Shown here: piece by piece, positions 17,934 through 62,906 of the stretch | Layout of the letters: every line of letters begins with the position of its first letter | Numbering within the stretch: the first letter of the stretch is position 1 | NCBI GenBank assembly: GCA_019058425.1 | Contig: JAHPYZ010000011.1 | Location: forward strand, 5,032-69,031 | DNA length: 64,000 nucleotides | Reading direction: 5' to 3' | Source of the DNA: Promethearchaeota archaeon | GTDB taxonomy: Archaea; Asgardarchaeota; Lokiarchaeia; Sigyniarchaeales; SOKP01 | The notes under the pieces: model-generated | What the model saw: the letters and a program-made list of their open reading frames with translations, nothing else | Database searches by the model: none | What the model was told of the DNA's origin: nothing | Made by a program: the position numbers and the translations under genes

Positions 17934-18236
17934 AATTATAGTGGAATTTTGGTCTATATGAATTTATAGGGAAATTCATCTTGTATTTTATTATTTTATT
18001 ATCTTAAAAGGAATCTAATAATTTCATTGATTTTTTCACAAGAAGTAGGAATTTCTCCAGAATTACATATTTTTAGCGAAGAGTTATATCTAAATTTATT
18101 AAGAATTAATCTTTATAGAATTCTTGACATAAGTATAAAAGATACCCCTATTAGGAAATTAGGAAAAATTAAAATTCTGAAAGAATCTGAATTAAATTCA
18201 GATTTCGAAGATATAATAAAGTTGGTTATCTCTATC

Positions 18237-18977
18237 ATGAAACCTCAGATTTTATCTAGAAACATTGGATTAGAGCATCCAAGTGTAAGGAAAGTAATAG
18301 AGATAGCTGAAGAGATTATGAGCAAAAACAAGTTATTAAATGTGGAAAATCTCTATAATTTGGCAAAAAAACGATTGAATTTATCGAGAAATGGCCTTCT
18401 ATTTATAATAAAATTTTTGATTAATAAAAAGATTCTAATTGAGGGATCAAAGTTTTCTAAGGAAACTGTTCTTTTAAATGGTATTAGAAGAAATATTTAT
18501 AACTATATTAAAGTAAATCCCGGTGTACATTTCTCTTTATTAAGAAAAAAGGCATTATCTGTCGAATCTGGTAGTTCCGGGCAATTAATATGGCACTTAG
18601 AGATGTTAATAAAATTTAATTATATCAATAAAACTAGTGTAGGGAATTACACCATTTTTTTTCCTATTGAGATGGAGATTGAATTTGGAATTATAACTTT
18701 TCTATTACGAGATAGGATTAATTTAAAAATTATCGAGTTTATAGCTACACATAAATCAATCAAAAAATCAGAAATTTATAAATTAATAGACGAAAAAAGA
18801 GATCTCGTTAATTATCGTATAACCAATCTAATAAACTATGATTTGATCTATTTTGAAAATGAAAACACTAAGGAGCTCTGTATAAATCCTACCAAACAAA
18901 GTGATATTTTTGATATTATCAATATTTTTAGAAAAAAATTGAATAAAACTGAATTAAAAAAAATTAATAAAAGATAA
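18237..18977 (+). CDS. Multi-winged-helix putative transcription regulator (N-terminal wHTH plus two COG3398-like HTHs), module 1
   Basis: RRNIYNYIKVNPGVHFSLLR...SSGQLIWHLEML; full-length paralog of 60853-61536, whose N-terminus aligns to the ATG at 18237. Confidence 0.8.
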   Translation: MKPQILSRNIGLEHPSVRKVIEIAEEIMSKNKLLNVENLYNLAKKRLNLSRNGLLFIIKFLINKKILIEGSKFSKETVLLNGIRRNIYNYIKVNPGVHFSLLRKKALSVESGSSGQLIWHLEMLIKFNYINKTSVGNYTIFFPIEMEIEFGIITFLLRDRINLKIIEFIATHKSIKKSEIYKLIDEKRDLVNYRITNLINYDLIYFENENTKELCINPTKQSDIFDIINIFRKKLNKTELKKINKR

Positions 18978-18982
18978 GAAAA

Positions 18983-20299
18983 ATGGTATTAAATTGGACA
19001 CCTGAAATCATTGTAGAAATATTCACAAGTTCGATTATTTTAATAGCTACACTATTAATGTTCATTACACCGAGAACAAAGAATATTAAATCATTGTCGT
19101 TTATCAGAGTAGCTCTCTTTTTCATGGGTATGCTTTTTGCGCTAGATTTGCTAGCAAATCTTTATTTGAACCAATTTCTTTCCCGAATTTGTGGACTTAT
19201 GCTATTTCCTAGTGCAGTGTTCTTTGCAATTGGTATAAACTATACAATTAAAGAAACATTTAATTCCCCATTCTTGCTTATAGCTGTGGGTTTAGGTATT
19301 TTATACACTTACTTAGCATTTCAACCTGGGGCAGTTAGATTTGAAATTGAGGGAGATTATTTAAATTTGAATTGGATTGGCTTATACGAATTAGGGGGTT
19401 TAATTTTCATATTCTTTGTTGGGAGTGCTTCATTTTATTGGGGATTAAAAACTTGGTTAAATGCTCCATTTTTAATTAGAAGAGAAGCGTCCATTTTTTT
19501 CCTTGGTACTTTAATAAATGGCCCCTTAACTCTACTTATTTACACCTTTTATTATTGGAATCCAATTTTTATTTTGTTTGCCTACGCAACTACTGGTTTA
19601 GGAAACTTATTTGTTTGTCTTGGTATATTAATGGAGCCTAAACTCTTATATATTTTACCATTTACAGTTAATAGGATTGTTGTAAGAGATCGAAATGGTA
19701 ATGCATTATATAATTATGATTGGTCTCTTTCTAGTTTAAGGGAATCAGTTTTTACTGGATTTCTAAATGCAGTACAACTTATGAGCGATGAAGTAATAAA
19801 TATGGGAGGGTTGTTGGATATAAAATTAGAAGAAGGGATATTAACATTATATGAATCGGATTTAATCTCAGTTGGATTATTATCGTCCAAATCTTCGAAA
19901 CTATTAAGAGAATGTGTTGTGGGGTTCTCAATGGAATTCCAAATTATTTTTGAAAAGGAACTTAAGCAATCATGTGTAAATCAAGCGAAATATGAGTCTG
20001 CATATGATTTGATAGAGAAATACTTCTCCAACTTTCCTTATAAAATGATTACTAGCAAAAAACAATCTCTGATTTTATCAGGTGAATATACAAAAATACC
20101 TTTAGAGTTGGAAAGTAATTTTAAAGAGATTTTCCAAAATGAGATGGAATATAATTTCATTAAAATTGAACTTCAAAAGTCTCCTTTAAACCAAAGCTCA
20201 GAGTTTTTTTCATTATATAACGATTTAGAAAATGAAGCGCGAGAAATGGTTGAAGATAATTCAAAATCTCTGGAATATAAACTCCATGATGAACTTTAA
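18983..20299 (+). CDS. 7-TM membrane protein fused to a cytoplasmic longin-like domain
   Basis: Seven hydrophobic helices in residues ~7-217, then LYILPFTVNRIVVRDRNGNALY...VFTGFLNAVQLMSDEV longin pattern. Confidence 0.75.
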   Translation: MVLNWTPEIIVEIFTSSIILIATLLMFITPRTKNIKSLSFIRVALFFMGMLFALDLLANLYLNQFLSRICGLMLFPSAVFFAIGINYTIKETFNSPFLLIAVGLGILYTYLAFQPGAVRFEIEGDYLNLNWIGLYELGGLIFIFFVGSASFYWGLKTWLNAPFLIRREASIFFLGTLINGPLTLLIYTFYYWNPIFILFAYATTGLGNLFVCLGILMEPKLLYILPFTVNRIVVRDRNGNALYNYDWSLSSLRESVFTGFLNAVQLMSDEVINMGGLLDIKLEEGILTLYESDLISVGLLSSKSSKLLRECVVGFSMEFQIIFEKELKQSCVNQAKYESAYDLIEKYFSNFPYKMITSKKQSLILSGEYTKIPLELESNFKEIFQNEMEYNFIKIELQKSPLNQSSEFFSLYNDLENEAREMVEDNSKSLEYKLHDEL

Positions 20300-20548
20300 A
20301 GTTATAGATTGAAAAAATCAATGATTAGAATTATATATTAATACTATAGGCAATTCAAAACTAATATAAAAAATGGAAAATTGACAATTATGTAAAAGAA
20401 AAAGTTATTATATATTTATATACTAAAATAGATTACATATTATTCGTAATTTACGTTTAGTAAAGGAATCCTCTTCAATATATTGAACCCTTAAAAGAAG
20501 AAGTTTATTTATCTAAATTAAATAAATATAAAAAAAGGCGTAAGAATA

Positions 20549-21847
20549 TTGTTAAATTGGACTACTGAAGTAATTGTTGATTTCATAGTAGGAACAATTA
20601 TTTTCTTAGCCTTAATAATAACCCATTTTGAGCCTAAAATCAAAAAACTCAGATCAATCCTCTATATTAGGATAGCAATATTTTTTATGATGCTAGTTTT
20701 TTACATCGATGCTTTGAGTATTCTTTATTTAAATATCACTTTGTCACGATTCAATGCATTTAACATTGCCTTCACCTCTATTTTTCTCTTAATGGGAGTT
20801 AATTACATCTCGAGACAAACCTTCAATTCAATCTTTTTAATTATTAATTGTTGTTTAGGAACATTAATGGTTTATTTAGCTTTTCAAGCAGATTCAATTA
20901 AACTTGTAACTGAATTTGGATACTTAAATATAAAGTGGATTAGAGCTCTTGCATTAATGGATATTATTATATCTCTTAACCTAGTAGTAGTATTACTATA
21001 TTGGGGTTTTAAAACTTGGGTAAATTCGCCTTTTTTAATTAAAAAAGAGAGTTTAATATTCTTAATAGGGATACTCTTTATAGGACCAATCTATCTCATT
21101 TTCTATATACTCTACTATTTAAATATCCTATTTGTTACAATTGGGGATCTTTTAATGGGTCTGGGAACTTTAATATTTTGTTTCGTTATAGGAAGAGAGC
21201 CAAAGTTATTGTATATACTCCCTTTTACAATTCATAGAATTGTAGTAAAAGATAGAAATGGAAATCCTTTATATGATCATGATTGGTCTCAATCAAATAT
21301 AAATGAAACGATATTTACTGGATTTTTAAACGCAGTTCAACTTATGAGTGAAGATGTAATGCAAATTGGAGGTTTATTCGATATAAATTTGGAAGATGGT
21401 ATTCTTATTTTACGAGAATCTGCACAGATCACAGTCGGTCTTGTCTCATCGAAATCCTCAAAATTGTTGAAAGATTCAGTAGTTAAATTTACAGCAGATT
21501 TTGAAAAAAAATTTGAACGTGAATTAAAAAAGTCAATTAAGGATATGACTCAATATGAAGGGGCATATGAACTTATAGAAAAATACTTTTCAAATTTTCC
21601 ATATAAGACTATTAAAAGTAAAAAACAACCCATATTTCTTACAGAGAGATATACTAAAATTCCTTTAGAATTAGAGAATAAACTTCGTACAATTTTTAAT
21701 GATGAAGAAGAATATGAAGCTATTAAAGCTGAATTAATAAAATCTCCCCTTTCTTTTATTTCAGAGTTTATCAGACTCCATGATCAATTAAAAGATGAAG
21801 TAAAAGGGATTTCATCTGAAGATATTAAATATCTAAATGAGAATTAA
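20549..21847 (+). CDS. 7-TM plus longin-like protein, tandem paralog
   Basis: Collinear with 18983-20299: WGFKTW, EPKLLYILPF, IFTGFLNAVQLMSE, YTKIPLELE. Confidence 0.75.
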   Translation: MLNWTTEVIVDFIVGTIIFLALIITHFEPKIKKLRSILYIRIAIFFMMLVFYIDALSILYLNITLSRFNAFNIAFTSIFLLMGVNYISRQTFNSIFLIINCCLGTLMVYLAFQADSIKLVTEFGYLNIKWIRALALMDIIISLNLVVVLLYWGFKTWVNSPFLIKKESLIFLIGILFIGPIYLIFYILYYLNILFVTIGDLLMGLGTLIFCFVIGREPKLLYILPFTIHRIVVKDRNGNPLYDHDWSQSNINETIFTGFLNAVQLMSEDVMQIGGLFDINLEDGILILRESAQITVGLVSSKSSKLLKDSVVKFTADFEKKFERELKKSIKDMTQYEGAYELIEKYFSNFPYKTIKSKKQPIFLTERYTKIPLELENKLRTIFNDEEEYEAIKAELIKSPLSFISEFIRLHDQLKDEVKGISSEDIKYLNEN

Positions 21848-22797: not shown

Positions 22798-23604
22798 CTA
22801 TACTAAATTAAATTCTGTTAATTGGTTCTTCAAATTTTCAGCTAATATCCCTAATTTCTGTGCTGTAGTTGAAATTTCCTCTATTGAAGATGTCTGTTGC
22901 GTTGTAGATGAACTTATTCCCTCTATAGAAGAAGATGTCCTATAGATTTTATTAATAATTTCTCCAATTTTACCGCCTGTGTTTATAACTGCATTTTTTG
23001 ATTCTTCAGCTAATTTCCTTACCTCATCAGCAACTACAGCAAATCCTCTTCCATGCTCACCCGCTCTTCCTGCTTCGATACTAGCATTTAGAGCTAATAG
23101 ATTTGTTTGTTCAGAGATATTGGTTATTAAATCCATTATGACTTGAATTTCATTTGAGGTTTTAACAACATCTCGAGAATCTAAAGCAATATCTTGAGTT
23201 GTTGAGGATATTTCTTCTGATGCGGCATTTACTTCACTAATACTCGCTGCCATTTCTGTAGCGATATTTGCGACAGATACAGAAGTTTGAGAACTAGATT
23301 TTAACAAGGTTTTAATTGTATTCTCTTGACGTAGAATAACTTTAATGATATAGTAAAATGAATAAAAAACTAATGCAACAGCAGGAGGAATCATACATAG
23401 AATAGTAATTAGGTCACTATCAAAAGGATCTAGAGCAAATATCACAAATATCATCAACACAATAATTGCTATAGTCATAATTGAAATTACTCTAAAAGCT
23501 AAAGATTCTCTGTTTAATCCATACTTTCTCTTAAAGAAAATGAATGCTAAGGCAAAGACTCCTACTACCATTAATATTTCATACTCAAGTGGTATTTGAG
23601 GCAT
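22798..23604 (-). CDS. Methyl-accepting chemotaxis-type protein with 3 TM and a short signalling domain
   Basis: [40 protein letters not shown] hairpin-tip signature. Confidence 0.92.
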
Positions 23605-24042: not shown

Positions 24043-24756
24043 ATGGGTATTAGAAAGATTGAAGATGAGATTGACCTAAAAGAAGCTATGAAAAAGAAAG
24101 CTGCCGAATTGAAAATGAAGGACATGCAAGCAAAAGCCTCAGTTGAAAAATTCACTAAAGATAAACTAAGAGACCTTGCTAAGAAACATGGTGTTTTATT
24201 AGCTTTAACTCCCGAGTTAAGAAAAGAAGTAAAAGAATTGCAGAAAAAGTATAATATTCCCTCTTCAAAAATTATTACTGACCAAATAACAGAGCATGAT
24301 GTTTTAAGAAAGTTCTCAAAAATAGATCACCAAAAATTAGGAATGTTAGCATACCAAAGAGTTTTGATGAGTAAAGAGGAAACTGGAGGAATTATCCCGT
24401 TATCAGAAGTCTATGAATTAGTTAATACAGGAATTTTAAATGGTAACATTGAAGTAAAAGATGTAGAAAAATCACTACGACTGCTGAAAAAAACAAAAGT
24501 TATTGATGATATAACCGAATTGGAATCAGGATCAATTATTATAAGATTTTTTCCCATTGAGTATACGAGTGATGAAGCCAAGGTTGTTGATTTAGCTAAA
24601 GAGAAAGGTGTTCTTACTTTAGAAGATGTTTGTACTAATTTAGAATGGTCACAAGATCGAGCTTTAAGATCTTTAGAATCACTCGAAAGAAGTGGTATTG
24701 CTAAATTTAGGGAGAACATCTTAACTGGGAAACAATGGTATTTCCCCTCATTGTGA
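24043..24756 (+). CDS. ESCRT-II Vps22/Vps36-like (EAP30 domain) protein
   Basis: MGIRKI N-terminus; TGGIIPLSEVY...DVEKSLRLL; WSQDRALRSLESL; QWYFPSL tandem wHTH; adjacent to vps25 and vps4. Confidence 0.85.
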   Translation: MGIRKIEDEIDLKEAMKKKAAELKMKDMQAKASVEKFTKDKLRDLAKKHGVLLALTPELRKEVKELQKKYNIPSSKIITDQITEHDVLRKFSKIDHQKLGMLAYQRVLMSKEETGGIIPLSEVYELVNTGILNGNIEVKDVEKSLRLLKKTKVIDDITELESGSIIIRFFPIEYTSDEAKVVDLAKEKGVLTLEDVCTNLEWSQDRALRSLESLERSGIAKFRENILTGKQWYFPSL

Positions 24757-24771
24757 GGAAAATTATTAAAC

Positions 24772-25665
24772 TTATTCTAACTTAATTTTAAACGCTAATT
24801 TTCCATCATCCAACTTTAAGATTTTAGCTTTTCGATTCTTAGCTAAAATCTTGAAAATCTCTTCCAGATCTTCAAGTGGAAGCGAGCTAAAATCTTCTTG
24901 TTTTGCTTCTCTTAATTCATAGATCATGATTGGCTCAATTTTTCCATTCTCATAAGCCCATTTCCATATTTCATCAGACCATACTTCAAGAGTTTTCCAG
25001 TATACTCTCAAACTTTCTTTCTTTTTTGAAAGCCATTTTGCTTGGTTCTGACTTATTAGTTCTTCAGAAATTTCTTTTATGTATTGCTCCCTTTTAGTAA
25101 AATTCATGAATGGTTTATGAGTTGTTAACTCTCTGGTGTAGATTATATGAAGAATAGCAAATCTAGCATAATCAAAAAGAACTTTTGCCCATTCTGTTTT
25201 CCACGAAATATAATCATTTTTGTTTTTGTTTTTATCAGGCATATCATACATGAACTTCTTTCTTTCCTCTTCGAGCCAAGGATATGCTTGCAACAAATTT
25301 TCATAAGCGGTTAGTTTCTTTTCGATTAGACCTTTTTCTCCAATAATTTCTTCTTCAAGGGTTTGTAACTCTGATTCAATTTGATCAGCATGCTTTTGAT
25401 AAACTTTAGTGTCTATCTCCCCTAGCTTGGAGGACAAAATATCTTCAAGTTTATCAAATTGTTCTTCAATAAAATCTAACTCTGTGGCTTTTATTTCATC
25501 TTCCTTAATGATATGCTTTTGTGTAGCTTCTATTTCCAATTGCTCTTTTTCTTGTTTTAATATCTTTAACCTAGCCAGTTCTTTCCTTAATTCCTCTAAC
25601 TCTTTTTCTGCTTTTTCTTTAACTTCCTTTGGAACTTCAGTTGATCTTTCTCTTTGTCTTTCCAT
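24772..25665 (-). CDS. vps25: ESCRT-II Vps25-like protein with N-terminal coiled coil
   Basis: SWKTEWAKVLFDY, VYWKTLEVWSDEIWKWA, MIYELRE; ESCRT context. Confidence 0.82.
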   Translation of the reverse strand: MERQRERSTEVPKEVKEKAEKELEELRKELARLKILKQEKEQLEIEATQKHIIKEDEIKATELDFIEEQFDKLEDILSSKLGEIDTKVYQKHADQIESELQTLEEEIIGEKGLIEKKLTAYENLLQAYPWLEEERKKFMYDMPDKNKNKNDYISWKTEWAKVLFDYARFAILHIIYTRELTTHKPFMNFTKREQYIKEISEELISQNQAKWLSKKKESLRVYWKTLEVWSDEIWKWAYENGKIEPIMIYELREAKQEDFSSLPLEDLEEIFKILAKNRKAKILKLDDGKLAFKIKLE

Positions 25666-25682
25666 ATTAATCGTTTACTTTT

Positions 25683-26894
25683 CTAAAATTCTCCGAATTC
25701 TTCCGCCCATGCATTATATTGTTTTAATAATGCTGCGTTGGTCATCGGTTTTACTTTTTTAAGTGCTTTTTTGAAATCTTTTACTGTAATATCTCTAACC
25801 TTTACTTCTTTATCGGAATCTTCTAGAAGTCCCCCCATATCTAACTCACGTACGGGCATCATTATTACTTCACGACATACATTTGCGATATCTCTTCCAG
25901 AATAACCTTCACTTCTAACTCCTAGTTCAACAAAATCCTCTTTTGTTAATGCTGAATCTACTCCCTCAGTATGGATTTTAAATATTCCGGCCCTACCTTT
26001 TAAATCTGGAAGAGGTACATGCACCCTTTTTTCAAATCTACTTAGCATGGCATTATCTATGTCCCAGGGGCGATTTGTTGCTCCTAAAACCAACAATGGT
26101 TTTCCACGACCTGATTTTAATCCTTGAATTTCGCTTAAAAGCTGAGTTTTAACTCTTCTTTCACCACCACTCTCAGAACCTTCTCCCCGTTTTGTTGCTA
26201 CAGAGTCAATTTCATCCATAAATATTAGACTTGGTGCTTTTAATCTAGCAACTTTAAATAAAGAACTAATTAGTTTTTCACTTTCACCTAACCATTTGCT
26301 TAGTAGATCTGCTGAAGAAGCACTAAAAAATGTAGCATTGCATTCGGTCGCAGCAGCTTTAGCTAATAAGGTCTTACCACATCCTGGAGGACCGAAGAGT
26401 AAGATTCCAGACCAAGGCCTTCTAGCACCTGTAAATAATTCTGGCTTTGCTATTGGCAAAACTATCGCTTCTCTCACTGCTTGTTTTACGTTTTCTAATC
26501 CTGCAATATCATCCCACCTTACATTAGGAGATTCTGTGACAATTGTACCAGATATCATATCAATGAGTTCTTGTTCTTCGGATGATACACTCGTCTCACC
26601 CTTTGATTCATCATCATCCCCTGAAACACCAGGTCTTCTAGATGGTCTCGCGCTTCTAGGTCCACCAAGTTGAGATTTTAATATTTTTGCACGTTCCACA
26701 TATTCCTCTATATTTTTTTGACATAAAGCTCTCATTTGAGGATTTTTGTTATATTTCATGAACTGTATTAGAATTTCGGCAGCTCTATTATATTTATTTA
26801 TAGCTTGATGATATTTTCCTTGACTATCTAGCAAAACAGCCTCTTTTGCTGTTGATACTGCATATTGATAAAGTTTTGAATCTACCGACGACAT
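25683..26894 (-). CDS. vps4: Vps4 AAA ATPase (MIT plus AAA)
   Basis: N-terminal MIT helices; PNVRWDDIAGLE, GPPGCGKT, FMDEID, ATNRPWDID; C-terminal WAEEFG. Confidence 0.95.
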   Translation of the reverse strand: MSSVDSKLYQYAVSTAKEAVLLDSQGKYHQAINKYNRAAEILIQFMKYNKNPQMRALCQKNIEEYVERAKILKSQLGGPRSARPSRRPGVSGDDDESKGETSVSSEEQELIDMISGTIVTESPNVRWDDIAGLENVKQAVREAIVLPIAKPELFTGARRPWSGILLFGPPGCGKTLLAKAAATECNATFFSASSADLLSKWLGESEKLISSLFKVARLKAPSLIFMDEIDSVATKRGEGSESGGERRVKTQLLSEIQGLKSGRGKPLLVLGATNRPWDIDNAMLSRFEKRVHVPLPDLKGRAGIFKIHTEGVDSALTKEDFVELGVRSEGYSGRDIANVCREVIMMPVRELDMGGLLEDSDKEVKVRDITVKDFKKALKKVKPMTNAALLKQYNAWAEEFGEF

Positions 26895-27923: not shown

Positions 27924-28475
27924 ATGGAATTAAGTTTCAAAGTTATCATAATCGGTCCCGGAGCGGTAGGGAAAACTAGTTTACTTAATAGGTTCGTACA
28001 CAATGAATTTTCCTTAAAATATAAGTTAACTATTGGCGTTGATTTCTTAACCAAAAGTTTAGAATACGAACCTGAAAAATTTGTTAAACTCCACATATGG
28101 GACATAGGAGGGCAAGAAAAATTTAAATTTCTCCATCGTAGCTTTTACGAAGGTGCATTTGGGGCTTTAATTGTCTTTGATCTCTCAAGACATCAAACTT
28201 TTTCAAGTATGAAAGAGTGGCTTTCAGAAATGCGGAGTATAGTAATTAATGATATCCCTAGCGTAATACTTGGAAATAAATCAGATCTAATACCCGAAAT
28301 TGGCCAGACAATAGATAGAAAGGAAGTAGAAGAATATGCTAAAAAGGAAGATTGTCTCTACATTGAAACATCAGCTAAAACCGGAGATAATGTTGAAAAA
28401 GCTTTTCTTGAACTTACACGTCGTATGGTAAAGAAGATAGGAAAACTGGTAACAAAAAGTAAAGAGGATTCATAA
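27924..28475 (+). CDS. Rab-like small GTPase
   Basis: GPGAVGKT, TIGVDF, WDIGGQE, GNKSD, ETSAK; no C-terminal cysteines. Confidence 0.93.
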   Translation: MELSFKVIIIGPGAVGKTSLLNRFVHNEFSLKYKLTIGVDFLTKSLEYEPEKFVKLHIWDIGGQEKFKFLHRSFYEGAFGALIVFDLSRHQTFSSMKEWLSEMRSIVINDIPSVILGNKSDLIPEIGQTIDRKEVEEYAKKEDCLYIETSAKTGDNVEKAFLELTRRMVKKIGKLVTKSKEDS

Positions 28476-60852: not shown

Positions 60853-61536
60853 ATGAAATTTAAAAATGTTGTTGGACCGTTATCATTGGAAAATCCTAAT
60901 GTTCAAAAAATAATTGAAATTGCGAAAGAATTAATTAAAAAAAATAAGGTTTTGAAAGTAAAAAAACTCTATAATATAGCAATTAGATCTTTAGATATTT
61001 CTTCAGGAGACATACTGGATATTATCCAATTTTTAAACAATAATAAAATACTTATTGATGGTTCAAAACATACAAGAGATACGGTATTATTGAATCTATA
61101 TAGGAAAAAGATCTATAATGTGATAGAGAGTTTTAATGGTGCTACATTCTCTTTTTTAAGAGAGATGGTTTTTACAAATAATTCTGGAAGTGCAGGACAA
61201 CTAATTTGGCATTTAAAGATGCTATTAAAGTTCAAACATATAAAAAAACTTAAAGTTGGAAATTATTCTTTATTTCTTCCCTTAGATCTAGAAGATGATT
61301 TTGGAAAATTGTGTTTTTTTATGAAAGATAATCTTAATAGAAACATTATTAGACTATTTATAAATAATGATACGATTAAAAAGCCAAATGTATATAAGAA
61401 AATTAACTTTAAAAGAGAAAATGTTAATTACCGATTAAAAATATTGATGGAACATCAGATTTTAGTCTATAAAGATGAATCCACAAAGGAGATTTGTATT
61501 TCAAAAAGGATGAAAGAATTTCTTTTAAAAAATTAA
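60853..61536 (+). CDS. Multi-winged-helix putative transcription regulator, module 2
   Basis: Paralog of 18237-18977: KILIDGSK..RDTVLLN, GSAGQLIWHLKML, VGNYSLFLP, VNYRL. Confidence 0.82.
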   Translation: MKFKNVVGPLSLENPNVQKIIEIAKELIKKNKVLKVKKLYNIAIRSLDISSGDILDIIQFLNNNKILIDGSKHTRDTVLLNLYRKKIYNVIESFNGATFSFLREMVFTNNSGSAGQLIWHLKMLLKFKHIKKLKVGNYSLFLPLDLEDDFGKLCFFMKDNLNRNIIRLFINNDTIKKPNVYKKINFKRENVNYRLKILMEHQILVYKDESTKEICISKRMKEFLLKN

Positions 61537-61595: not shown

Positions 61596-62906
61596 ATGAA
61601 CTTATATATTATTTTGGAGCTTGTTTCTTTAATTTCTATAACAATAATCTTTCTGATAATTACAATCGCAATACAAGTATCTAAAGTTATGAAAAGATTT
61701 CCACTGTTATTTTATTTAAGGTTAACATCATGGTTTTTAGTCCTATATTTTATAACCAATATTATCTCTATTGTTTTAGAAAATGGAGCTTTTGCTCGTA
61801 TTCATATTATGCTTGTATTTCCATTTACATTCTTTTTTATTCTATTTTTTAATAATATGTTAAAAGAATCATATTATACTTTTGGTTTTATTGTATCTTG
61901 TTGTTTAGGTTTCTTACTTATTTTTTTGGGAACTCAGCCTAACGCTGTCAAGCGTATAACAGAACTAGGAGTTGAAATTTATGTACCTAATGGACTCTTT
62001 AATATTGTAGATAATATATTTTATCTATTATTTATTTCGTATTTTCTCTTTTGGGGGATTAAAACATGGACTATTAGTCCGTTTTATTTAAAAAAGAAAT
62101 CTTTATTATGTTTTATAGGAACAATAATATTTGCTGGAGGTTCAATATTTCATTTACTTTATTATTTTAATCCAATTTTTAATATTTTCATGCATCTATT
62201 AAATTTGATCAGTATATTACTTATAACAATAGTGATCATGAAGGAATTTAAGGTTCTCTACGTTTTACCTTATACAGTTTATAGAATCTCAGTAAGAGAC
62301 AATAATGGTAATCCTCTCTATGATCATGATTGGACAGATATGAATATAACCGAAACTGTTTTTTCAGGTTTCCTAAATGCTATTGAAATTATGAGTGAAG
62401 AAGTAATGCATGTGGGGGGTATACTCGATATAAATCTAAATGAAGGTATTCTTCTAGTGACCAGATGCGAACATATAACTGTAGGTTTACTTGCATCTAA
62501 GGCGTCCAAATTACTAAGAGATTGTGTAAATAATTTTACAATTGATTTTCAAAATAAATTTATAAGGCTTCTCAAAAAATCTTGTATAGATATGAAAGAA
62601 TACCGTTCTGCCTACGAGTTTATAAATAAATACTTTTCAATCATTCCATATAACAATATTAAAAATAAAAATCAGCTTATGACATTATCATATGAATATC
62701 ACGAATTACCAAAACAGCTTGAAGATAATTTTAAAAATATTTTTGGAGATAAGGATGAATATAAAAATGTTTTAAATGAATTAATTAAAACTCCCTGTTC
62801 AAAACCTTCGGAGTTTTTTGATCTCTATGACGAATTACAATTTGAAATCAATGAATTGGAATTAAAAAAATCAAAAGAACAAGAAGAAAAGAAATATTTA
62901 GAATAA
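61596..62906 (+). CDS. 7-TM plus longin-like protein, module 2
   Basis: Paralog of 18983 and 20549: WGIKTW, LYVLPYTVYRISVRDNNGNPLYDHDW, VFSGFLNA. Confidence 0.75.
   Translation: MNLYIILELVSLISITIIFLIITIAIQVSKVMKRFPLLFYLRLTSWFLVLYFITNIISIVLENGAFARIHIMLVFPFTFFFILFFNNMLKESYYTFGFIVSCCLGFLLIFLGTQPNAVKRITELGVEIYVPNGLFNIVDNIFYLLFISYFLFWGIKTWTISPFYLKKKSLLCFIGTIIFAGGSIFHLLYYFNPIFNIFMHLLNLISILLITIVIMKEFKVLYVLPYTVYRISVRDNNGNPLYDHDWTDMNITETVFSGFLNAIEIMSEEVMHVGGILDINLNEGILLVTRCEHITVGLLASKASKLLRDCVNNFTIDFQNKFIRLLKKSCIDMKEYRSAYEFINKYFSIIPYNNIKNKNQLMTLSYEYHELPKQLEDNFKNIFGDKDEYKNVLNELIKTPCSKPSEFFDLYDELQFEINELELKKSKEQEEKKYLE

Follow-up and report, generated by a model that had tools for sequence, protein, structure and literature searches.

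Gene organization

We analyzed two adjacent kinds of gene in a 64,000-nucleotide (nt) stretch of contig JAHPYZ010000011.1 from a Promethearchaeota archaeon (assembly GCA_019058425.1). This whole stretch is called the window; its G+C content is 30% and its host is a 4.6-Mb Asgard genome. The first kind of gene, H, encodes a regulator containing winged helix-turn-helix (wHTH) domains. The second, M, encodes a membrane protein with seven transmembrane (TM) helices (7TM) at its N-terminus, followed by a putative longin-like cytoplasmic domain and a C-terminal tail. The H and M genes of the window, their parts in amino acid (aa) residues and the basis of each assignment are as follows.

18027-18236, plus strand: in-frame leader of H1, the decayed remainder of a small gene, S, that is found upstream of H in related loci (alignment with S open reading frames and with N-terminal extensions of H)
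18237-18977, plus strand: H1, a regulator of 246 aa with two wHTH domains behind an N-terminal winged-helix-like region (PF24266 and HTH_24 matches)
18983-19633, plus strand: seven-TM sensor part of M1, residues 1-217 (seven hydropathy peaks)
19634-20044, plus strand: putative longin-like cytoplasmic domain of M1, residues 218-354 (hhalign against Asgard PF19036 proteins)
20045-20299, plus strand: C-terminal tail of M1, residues 355-438, the predicted docking site of H1 (contacts in a complex model)
20549-21847, plus strand: M2, paralogous to M1 and in tandem with it, with no H gene of its own; 7TM at residues 1-215, longin-like domain at 216-352, tail at 353-432 (sequence comparison, hydropathy)
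60853-61536, plus strand: H2, a second regulator of 227 aa (45% identical to H1; strong H-family match)
61596-62906, plus strand: M3, the receptor of the second locus; 7TM at ~residues 1-216, longin-like domain at ~217-353, tail at ~354-436 (sequence comparison, hydropathy)

The preferred start of H1 is the ATG at 18237, the TTG at 18027 opens the longest open reading frame (ORF) and the stop lies at 18977. The gaps are 5 nt between H1 and M1, 249 nt between M1 and M2 and 59 nt between H2 and M3. The H2/M3 pair sits 39 kb from the H1/M1 locus in the same gene order, with an ATP-binding cassette (ABC) solute-binding protein on one side and an FtsX-like permease on the other. A first-pass annotation of the window had described a wHTH gene 5 nt before a 7TM gene, a second tandem paralog of the latter, and a repeat of the wHTH-then-7TM order elsewhere. 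All of these ORFs were found as described, the repeat being H2/M3 (60853-61536 and 61596-62906).

Pairwise identity is 50% between M1 and M2, 38-39% between M3 and either of them, and 45% between H1 and H2. By region, M1-M3 are 26-40% identical in the TM part, 55-66% in the cytoplasmic domain (~137 residues) and 38-48% in the tail (last ~75 residues), in keeping with the annotated contrast between diverged TM regions and a conserved cytoplasmic half. The conserved motifs quoted in that annotation occur in M1, M2 and M3, with small substitutions in M3. One of them, WGxKTW, had been assigned to TM5; on a topology that we read from the positive-inside rule, it would lie where TM5 ends on the cytoplasmic side and in the loop after it. 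Each M protein has seven hydropathy peaks, near residues 17, 50, 79, 104, 144, 179 and 205 by a crude Kyte-Doolittle profile, which agrees with the annotated count of seven helices. The five window proteins have no kinase, receiver or cyclase match in Pfam or NCBIfam at E<=1, as had been noted from the motifs; at the same threshold HisKA and HATPase_c are absent from M1, M2 and M3.

Linkage of H to tail-bearing M

With M2 as the query, 420 proteins were identified at E<=1e-3 (8000 candidates scored). Those with a name are all "hypothetical proteins" of Asgard archaea, and a precomputed Pfam domain is lacking in all 420. An exhaustive M search gave 560 cluster representatives at E<=1e-3. The family contains two length classes, a long form of ~430-440 aa, as in the window, and a short form of ~355 aa, which stops directly after the conserved cytoplasmic domain without the ~80-aa C-terminal tail. 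A survey that scored six candidates per genome found a module-family match at E<=1e-5 in 283 of 301 sampled Asgard genomes, many of these matches covering only partial domains.

H lies directly upstream of M on the same strand in 57 of the 60 loci fetched by the M profile, where H matches with E>1e-40 were ignored in naming the upstream gene. H is missing from three loci: the intact L029, L064, which is a contig of 1.5 kb, and L065, which consists of gene fragments. Searching from the other side, each of the 12 strong H matches obtained in 20 relatives has an M of 427-439 aa immediately downstream. The window's own genome has two strong H genes only, each beside an M (H2 match E 6.8e-100). The pairing proposed in the first-pass annotation is therefore conserved in Asgard genomes and almost obligate in both directions, and by these counts the wHTH-7TM recurrence is far beyond chance. 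The H-M-M order of the first locus is also found in loci L028 and L031. Ten of 21 searched genomes have no strong H, and thus the H-M unit is accessory.

The linkage depends on the form of M. None of 20 short-form loci (20 genomes; tail-less ORFs of ~350-404 aa) has an H within 4 kb. Thus, the presence of H is tied to the tail rather than to the 7TM-longin core. The subfamilies of the two genes also travel together: among the 58 pairs with M at E<1e-90, to which this comparison was confined, 57 co-segregate (47 H1-like with M1-like, ten H2-like with M3-like) and one is discordant. The distances of H and M are correlated (r 0.61-0.78), as is expected of linked genes, and this was not counted as evidence of contact. 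Lastly, one relative (L155) is a 676-aa natural fusion in which a 7TM part, a longin-like domain and a tail are continued by a complete H (H model E 1.3e-82, residues 452-671). It has no separate upstream H gene, and it is identical to P0124 over the 600 C-terminal residues compared.

A linkage of this kind might arise without any physical coupling, if H were an ordinary operon repressor or activator and M its regulated target of unrelated function. A regulator gene right before its target is the commonest prokaryotic arrangement, and H carries wHTH domains of the transcription factor type. This explanation is nonetheless unlikely in our judgement for several reasons. First, H occurs only with tail-bearing M. 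Secondly, one relative fuses M to H. Third, the 5-nt spacing suggests coupled translation. In addition, a complex of the two proteins was modelled with a good score, and kinase-fused relatives mark M as a sensor, both of which are described below.

Predicted docking of H on the tail

The complex was modelled with M1 residues 219-438 (longin-like domain and tail) and H1, each with a 34-row alignment. The M1-H1 complex gave values of 0.70, 0.71 and 0.76 for the interaction prediction score from aligned errors (ipSAE), and all three controls gave 0.00. The runs share at least 64% of contacts, with a partner predicted local distance difference test (pLDDT) value of at least 82. Solved complexes reached the ipSAE mark used in 58 of 80 cases and mismatched pairs in 2 of 110; these rates are only a rough guide here, since our own alignments were used.

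All confident contacts of M in the model fall within the tail (M1 residues 355-422), and none is on the longin-like domain. On the side of H1 they involve residues 21-40, 62-73, 99-126 and 137-139, which represent the N-terminal winged-helix-like region and the second wHTH domain (wHTH2), including the conserved GQLIWHLEML helix of wHTH2; the third domain (wHTH3) has no confident contact. By hand count, 13 of the 37 conserved H positions are among the 40 interface residues (of 246 in total), and five of the six conserved tail positions are within the interface. Conserved positions thus appear to be enriched at the modelled interface. An interface confined to the tail agrees with the dependence of H on the tail, which was obtained separately from gene linkage. 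No similar complex was identified in PDB sequence searches. The first-pass annotation had proposed that a longin output signals to the cognate transcription factor and/or a small GTPase; in the model, the contact with H lies on the tail and not on the longin-like domain.

The seven-TM part as a sensor

For comparisons with the Atlas, the homologue P0105 was used as a stand-in for the window M proteins. The P0105 Atlas model matched three clusters of HisKA_7TM (PF16927) with a template modelling score (TM-score) of 0.43-0.45 by query. This match reached the Atlas bar for naming, while the Pfam sequence matches to 7TM models were below threshold: among 72 M members, three weakly matched 7TMR-DISM_7TM (PF07695) and one HisKA_7TM (E 4.9e-4).

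Several relatives join the same parts to kinases. In P0184, P0212 and L156 the 7TM and longin-like module is followed by HisKA-HATPase_c, as identified by Pfam. L157 (627 aa) and L158 (640 aa) are ORFs that match both the TM and the cytoplasmic models and lay outside the Pfam scan, from which L087 was also left out; a receiver gene follows L157. In L160 and L161 a 7TM part of the M type is followed by PAS-HisKA, and in L159 by HisKA-HATPase_c without a PAS match. More generally, paralogs that share only the 7TM part carry PAS-HisKA(-HATPase_c-REC) outputs. For these reasons, the 7TM part can be regarded as a sensor module, and by domain order the putative longin-like domain occupies the PAS position of the paralogs. 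The first-pass annotation had called the system kinase-free. This is correct for M1, M2 and M3 and does not extend to the family, in which relatives fuse 7TM-longin to HisKA-HATPase_c. Liu et al. (10.1101/2020.10.19.343400) note an "NPRL2-like longin fused to two-component domains", and the kinase-fused M relatives fit that remark.

The cytoplasmic domain

A profile of the M cytoplasmic domain (~135 aa) was compared by hhalign with 122 small Asgard proteins of the PF19036 type, giving 95.1%, E 3.4e-8, over 109 of ~132 columns. Same-genome roadblock proteins gave 56%, and the controls (the TM part, H and PAS) gave 0.1-0.5%. The window's own genome encodes ~130-aa proteins at or near the PF19036 cut-off, and for one ~130-aa seed protein 84 of the 120 listed relatives have a precomputed PF19036 assignment (hand count). 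The small-longin profile is also matched by some short-form M members themselves (E as low as 3.9e-9). The strand and helix pattern would fit the beta-beta-alpha-beta-beta-beta-alpha-alpha longin fold without its N-terminal helix.

Direct matches are weaker. Fuz_longin_1 (PF19036) is the family matched by most M members, yet this amounts to 3 of 72 (best E 9.6e-4, below the cut-off), and a direct Pfam scan gave no PF19036 match for the window M proteins. PDB sequence searches returned nothing usable (best E 0.42 for the whole-family profile and 0.89 for the cytoplasmic profile). By language-model features, the nearest neighbours of P0105 residues 222-356 are small Asgard clusters; one near cluster is named Roadblock/LAMTOR2 with 22% PF19036 (score 0.83), which is a lead only. 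PF06218 (NPR2) had zero matches in the own genome and also zero in controls, and is uninformative. Two other identities were considered. PAS was ruled out, at 0.5% in hhalign, and roadblock in place of longin is the less probable assignment (56% against 95%), though still a candidate, the two families being related. The longin claim of the first-pass annotation is thus supported by remote profile homology to Asgard PF19036 proteins (95.1%) and not by direct Pfam matches (3 of 72, below threshold), and the domain is best described as longin-like by remote homology.

Two further similarities were observed. By predicted structure, P0105 residues 222-356 matched only unnamed clusters in the Atlas. 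A bacterial cluster with 6862 members, "OmpA family" proteins of ~760 aa, gave a TM-score of 0.82 by query over 131 residues, and its aligned portion has no named family. In addition, the same longin-like domain is found directly beneath the membrane in two giant proteins of this genome (L004 and L005, with open frames of 1890 and 1929 aa; E 3.6e-6 and 1.9e-5, respectively, against M2). Their layout is a large repetitive N-terminal part, which we read as extracellular, followed by one TM helix and the longin-like domain.

A longin fold could also point to another function. The domain could be an output that regulates a small GTPase, as a guanine nucleotide exchange factor (GEF) or GTPase-activating protein (GAP) platform resembling a G-protein-coupled receptor (GPCR), with the wHTH protein as a secondary target or an operon regulator. 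PMC10933270 describes longin/roadblock domains as GTPase platforms in eukaryotes and bacteria, a role that the remote homology to PF19036-type proteins would allow for M. Six of the 20 short-form loci have a Ras/Rab-like gene within 4 kb, which in one case is fused to a roadblock-like N-terminus, and the window has a Rab-like gene at 27924-28475 (plus strand) with P-loop, DxxGQ and NKxD motifs. However, by coordinates no GTPase gene adjoins M in those six loci, none of the 14 largest clusters of conserved neighbours around the 60 long-form loci is a GTPase, and the Rab-like gene of the window is ~6 kb downstream of M2 and not adjacent to it. Asgard genomes also hold many GTPase genes (37 Rab-like proteins are predicted in Loki, according to PMC10933270), so that 6 of 20 within 8 kb is near chance by our uncomputed estimate. 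Further, relatives place the longin-like domain between the 7TM part and a histidine kinase, where paralogs have PAS, and the modelled contact of H is on the tail. The GTPase or GPCR-like output put forward in the first-pass annotation was thus not borne out, there being no conserved GTPase neighbour and a model in which H touches the tail, and we assign it a low probability. A gene near one short-form receptor (L125, 6672-8204, minus strand) encodes a 510-aa protein, which by sequence reading has a Rab-like GTPase core between a roadblock-like N-terminus and an additional domain at the C-terminus.

The regulator H and the small protein S

H1 matches HTH_HVO_0163_N (PF24266) at residues 83-146 with 32.3 bits (cut-off 31), and residues 158-204 give a weak HTH_24 match. 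Residues 12-75 may form a third wHTH domain, on our reading of the sequence pattern only. Across 34 H members, Pfam matches were obtained to PF24266 (29), HTH_20 (15), HTH_24 (12), HTH_34 (8), TrmB (7) and HTH_5 (4). The best PDB sequence matches of H are archaeal Lrp/AsnC-type regulators at wHTH3 (E 0.003-0.01). By these matches, H is a wHTH protein of the transcription factor type, and would be expected to bind DNA. Six distant H paralogs are present in the own genome (L147-L152; E 1e-14 to 1e-24). Three of these (L149, L151 and L152) are TM-anchored and the other three (L147, L148 and L150) adjoin membrane proteins, which suggests a wider habit of membrane-coupled multi-wHTH regulators.

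Separate S ORFs of 99-157 aa lie upstream of H in 11 related loci, for example at 3821-4207 of L006, and in 9 loci S forms an N-terminal extension of H itself. Seven S ORFs end in ~40 residues that match the docking part of the M tail (M model 382-426, E 1.3e-5 to 2.7e-3). S may therefore be a soluble decoy for H. In the window, S lacks its first half because of upstream in-frame stop codons, and the tail-like motif at the end of the remnant is decayed.

Winged helices also occur in the endosomal sorting complex required for transport (ESCRT), whose genes are found near the first locus:

24043-24756, plus strand: EAP30/Vps22-36-like protein
24772-25665, minus strand: ESCRT-II Vps25-like domain protein
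25683-26894, minus strand: Vps4 with MIT, AAA and Vps4_C domains

Between M2 and this cluster lies a gene for a membrane protein (22798-23604, minus strand; 268 aa) with the signalling domain of methyl-accepting chemotaxis proteins (PF00015, E 6.4e-30).

H might accordingly be a winged-helix scaffold like the ESCRT-II subunits, recruited by M to the membrane and tied to these genes. The cluster (24043-26894) is 2 kb downstream of M2 and syntenic in 17-20 of 60 related loci, and in the complex model the "recognition" helix of wHTH2 makes contacts with protein. Against this, every Pfam match of H is to a prokaryotic regulator family, the H2/M3 locus is away from ESCRT genes, and the accessible text of an ESCRT survey (PMC11188069) does not mention such a pair. 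The comparison of H by hhalign with the EAP30-like and Vps25-like families of the window gave only 0.2% and 4.3%, respectively, and H was rejected as an ESCRT-II-like protein. A scaffold role is in our opinion very improbable, and is the least probable of the explanations considered.

Proposed mechanism

The explanation that we favour, with somewhat more confidence than doubt, is that H and M together make up a membrane signalling unit of two genes, in which the sensor docks and controls a transcription regulator. The unit has so far been found only in Asgard archaea. The variable seven-helix part, a type of sensor that prokaryotes put ahead of histidine kinases, would sense a signal in the membrane, and the TM5-TM6 loop (WGxKTW...PF.IKKE) together with the longin-like domain would relay it as a transducer. 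The helical tail of ~80 residues would dock H by wrapping the N-terminal winged-helix region and wHTH2, leaving wHTH3 free while H is held. The signal would then alter the grip of the tail, and the action of H on DNA would be set by tethering or release. In this scheme the tail-H interface is taken from the model; that H binds DNA (including through wHTH3), which way the control runs and what kind of signal is sensed are what we infer.

Several points weigh against this two-gene unit. First, the evidence for it consists of sequence comparison, gene linkage and a complex model. The longin fold is assigned from remote homology, and the complex score is the model's own confidence, obtained with alignments that we made. 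Secondly, the modelled interface covers the wHTH2 helix that would normally read DNA. Thus, H may not bind DNA with wHTH2, or at all. Third, the 200-nt regions preceding 48 H genes gave no shared palindrome or operator-like word clearly above shuffles. This search covered gapped palindromes and 8-mers, and excluded H ORFs >265 aa or <220 nt from the locus end. The top gapped palindrome, a run of T, was shared by 9 loci, where shuffles gave at most 6, and all words with clear enrichment come from the S coding sequence. Fourth, M2 has no H of its own, and one intact locus (L029) lacks H. Lastly, the fusion of M to H is known from a single genome or cluster, and the genomes are related, so the locus counts are not independent.

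A bolder version of the unit can also be put forward, although we hold it to be doubtful. Asgard archaea might have a receptor class of their own, in which longin, a fold that steers small GTPases in eukaryotes, is the transducer of a 7TM sensor, a transferable tail motif docks a triple winged-helix regulator and soluble S, which bears this motif in some genomes, competes for it, forming a kinase-free three-part switch of tail, decoy and regulator. The longin domain might in addition recruit a GTPase, linking membrane sensing, transcription and trafficking in the archaeal lineage closest to eukaryotes.

Implications and comparison with known systems

Expanded longin families in Asgard archaea and fusions of longin to two-component domains have been described (Liu et al., bioRxiv 10.1101/2020.10.19.343400; PMC10933270). 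The literature text searched contained no 7TM-longin receptor, wHTH pairing or tail-docking model, though figures and supplements, including Fig. 5c of Liu et al., may show the architecture. Longin/roadblock domains are among the most expanded "eukaryote-like" families of Asgard archaea. The M family would place a longin-like domain in a plain prokaryotic role, as a transducer interchangeable with PAS that feeds either a kinase or a docked regulator. If this is true, part of the Asgard longin expansion represents signalling and not vesicle traffic, which tempers endomembrane inferences. It would also provide a rare defined regulatory circuit for Lokiarchaeia-like organisms, in which a membrane signal reaches genes without a kinase, a little-studied route. 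The tail-regulator pair is small enough for in vitro work.

In membrane anti-sigma/sigma pairs and in PtsG/Mlc, a cytoplasmic segment of a membrane protein holds a soluble DNA-binding regulator, and a signal frees or captures that regulator. The H-M unit resembles these systems in that M is proposed to hold H by a cytoplasmic segment and the genes are paired. It differs from them in its components: M consists of a 7TM part, a longin-like domain and a helical tail, H is a putative triple winged-helix protein, and there is no protease, phosphotransfer or sigma factor, while the release of H is only proposed. The unit would thus be a new variant of sensor-controlled regulator sequestration. Like the HisKA_7TM (PF16927) and 7TMR-DISM_7TM (PF07695) kinases, M begins with a sensor of seven helices and continues into a cytoplasmic transducer; unlike the 7TM-sensor histidine kinases, M1-M3 have no kinase, and their transducer is longin-like instead of PAS, HAMP or GAF. 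The cytoplasmic domain of M also shares profile-level homology with the Asgard longin proteins of the Fuz/Mon1/HPS1 type (PF19036), but in M it is joined to a 7TM sensor and is accompanied by a tail that is predicted to dock a partner.

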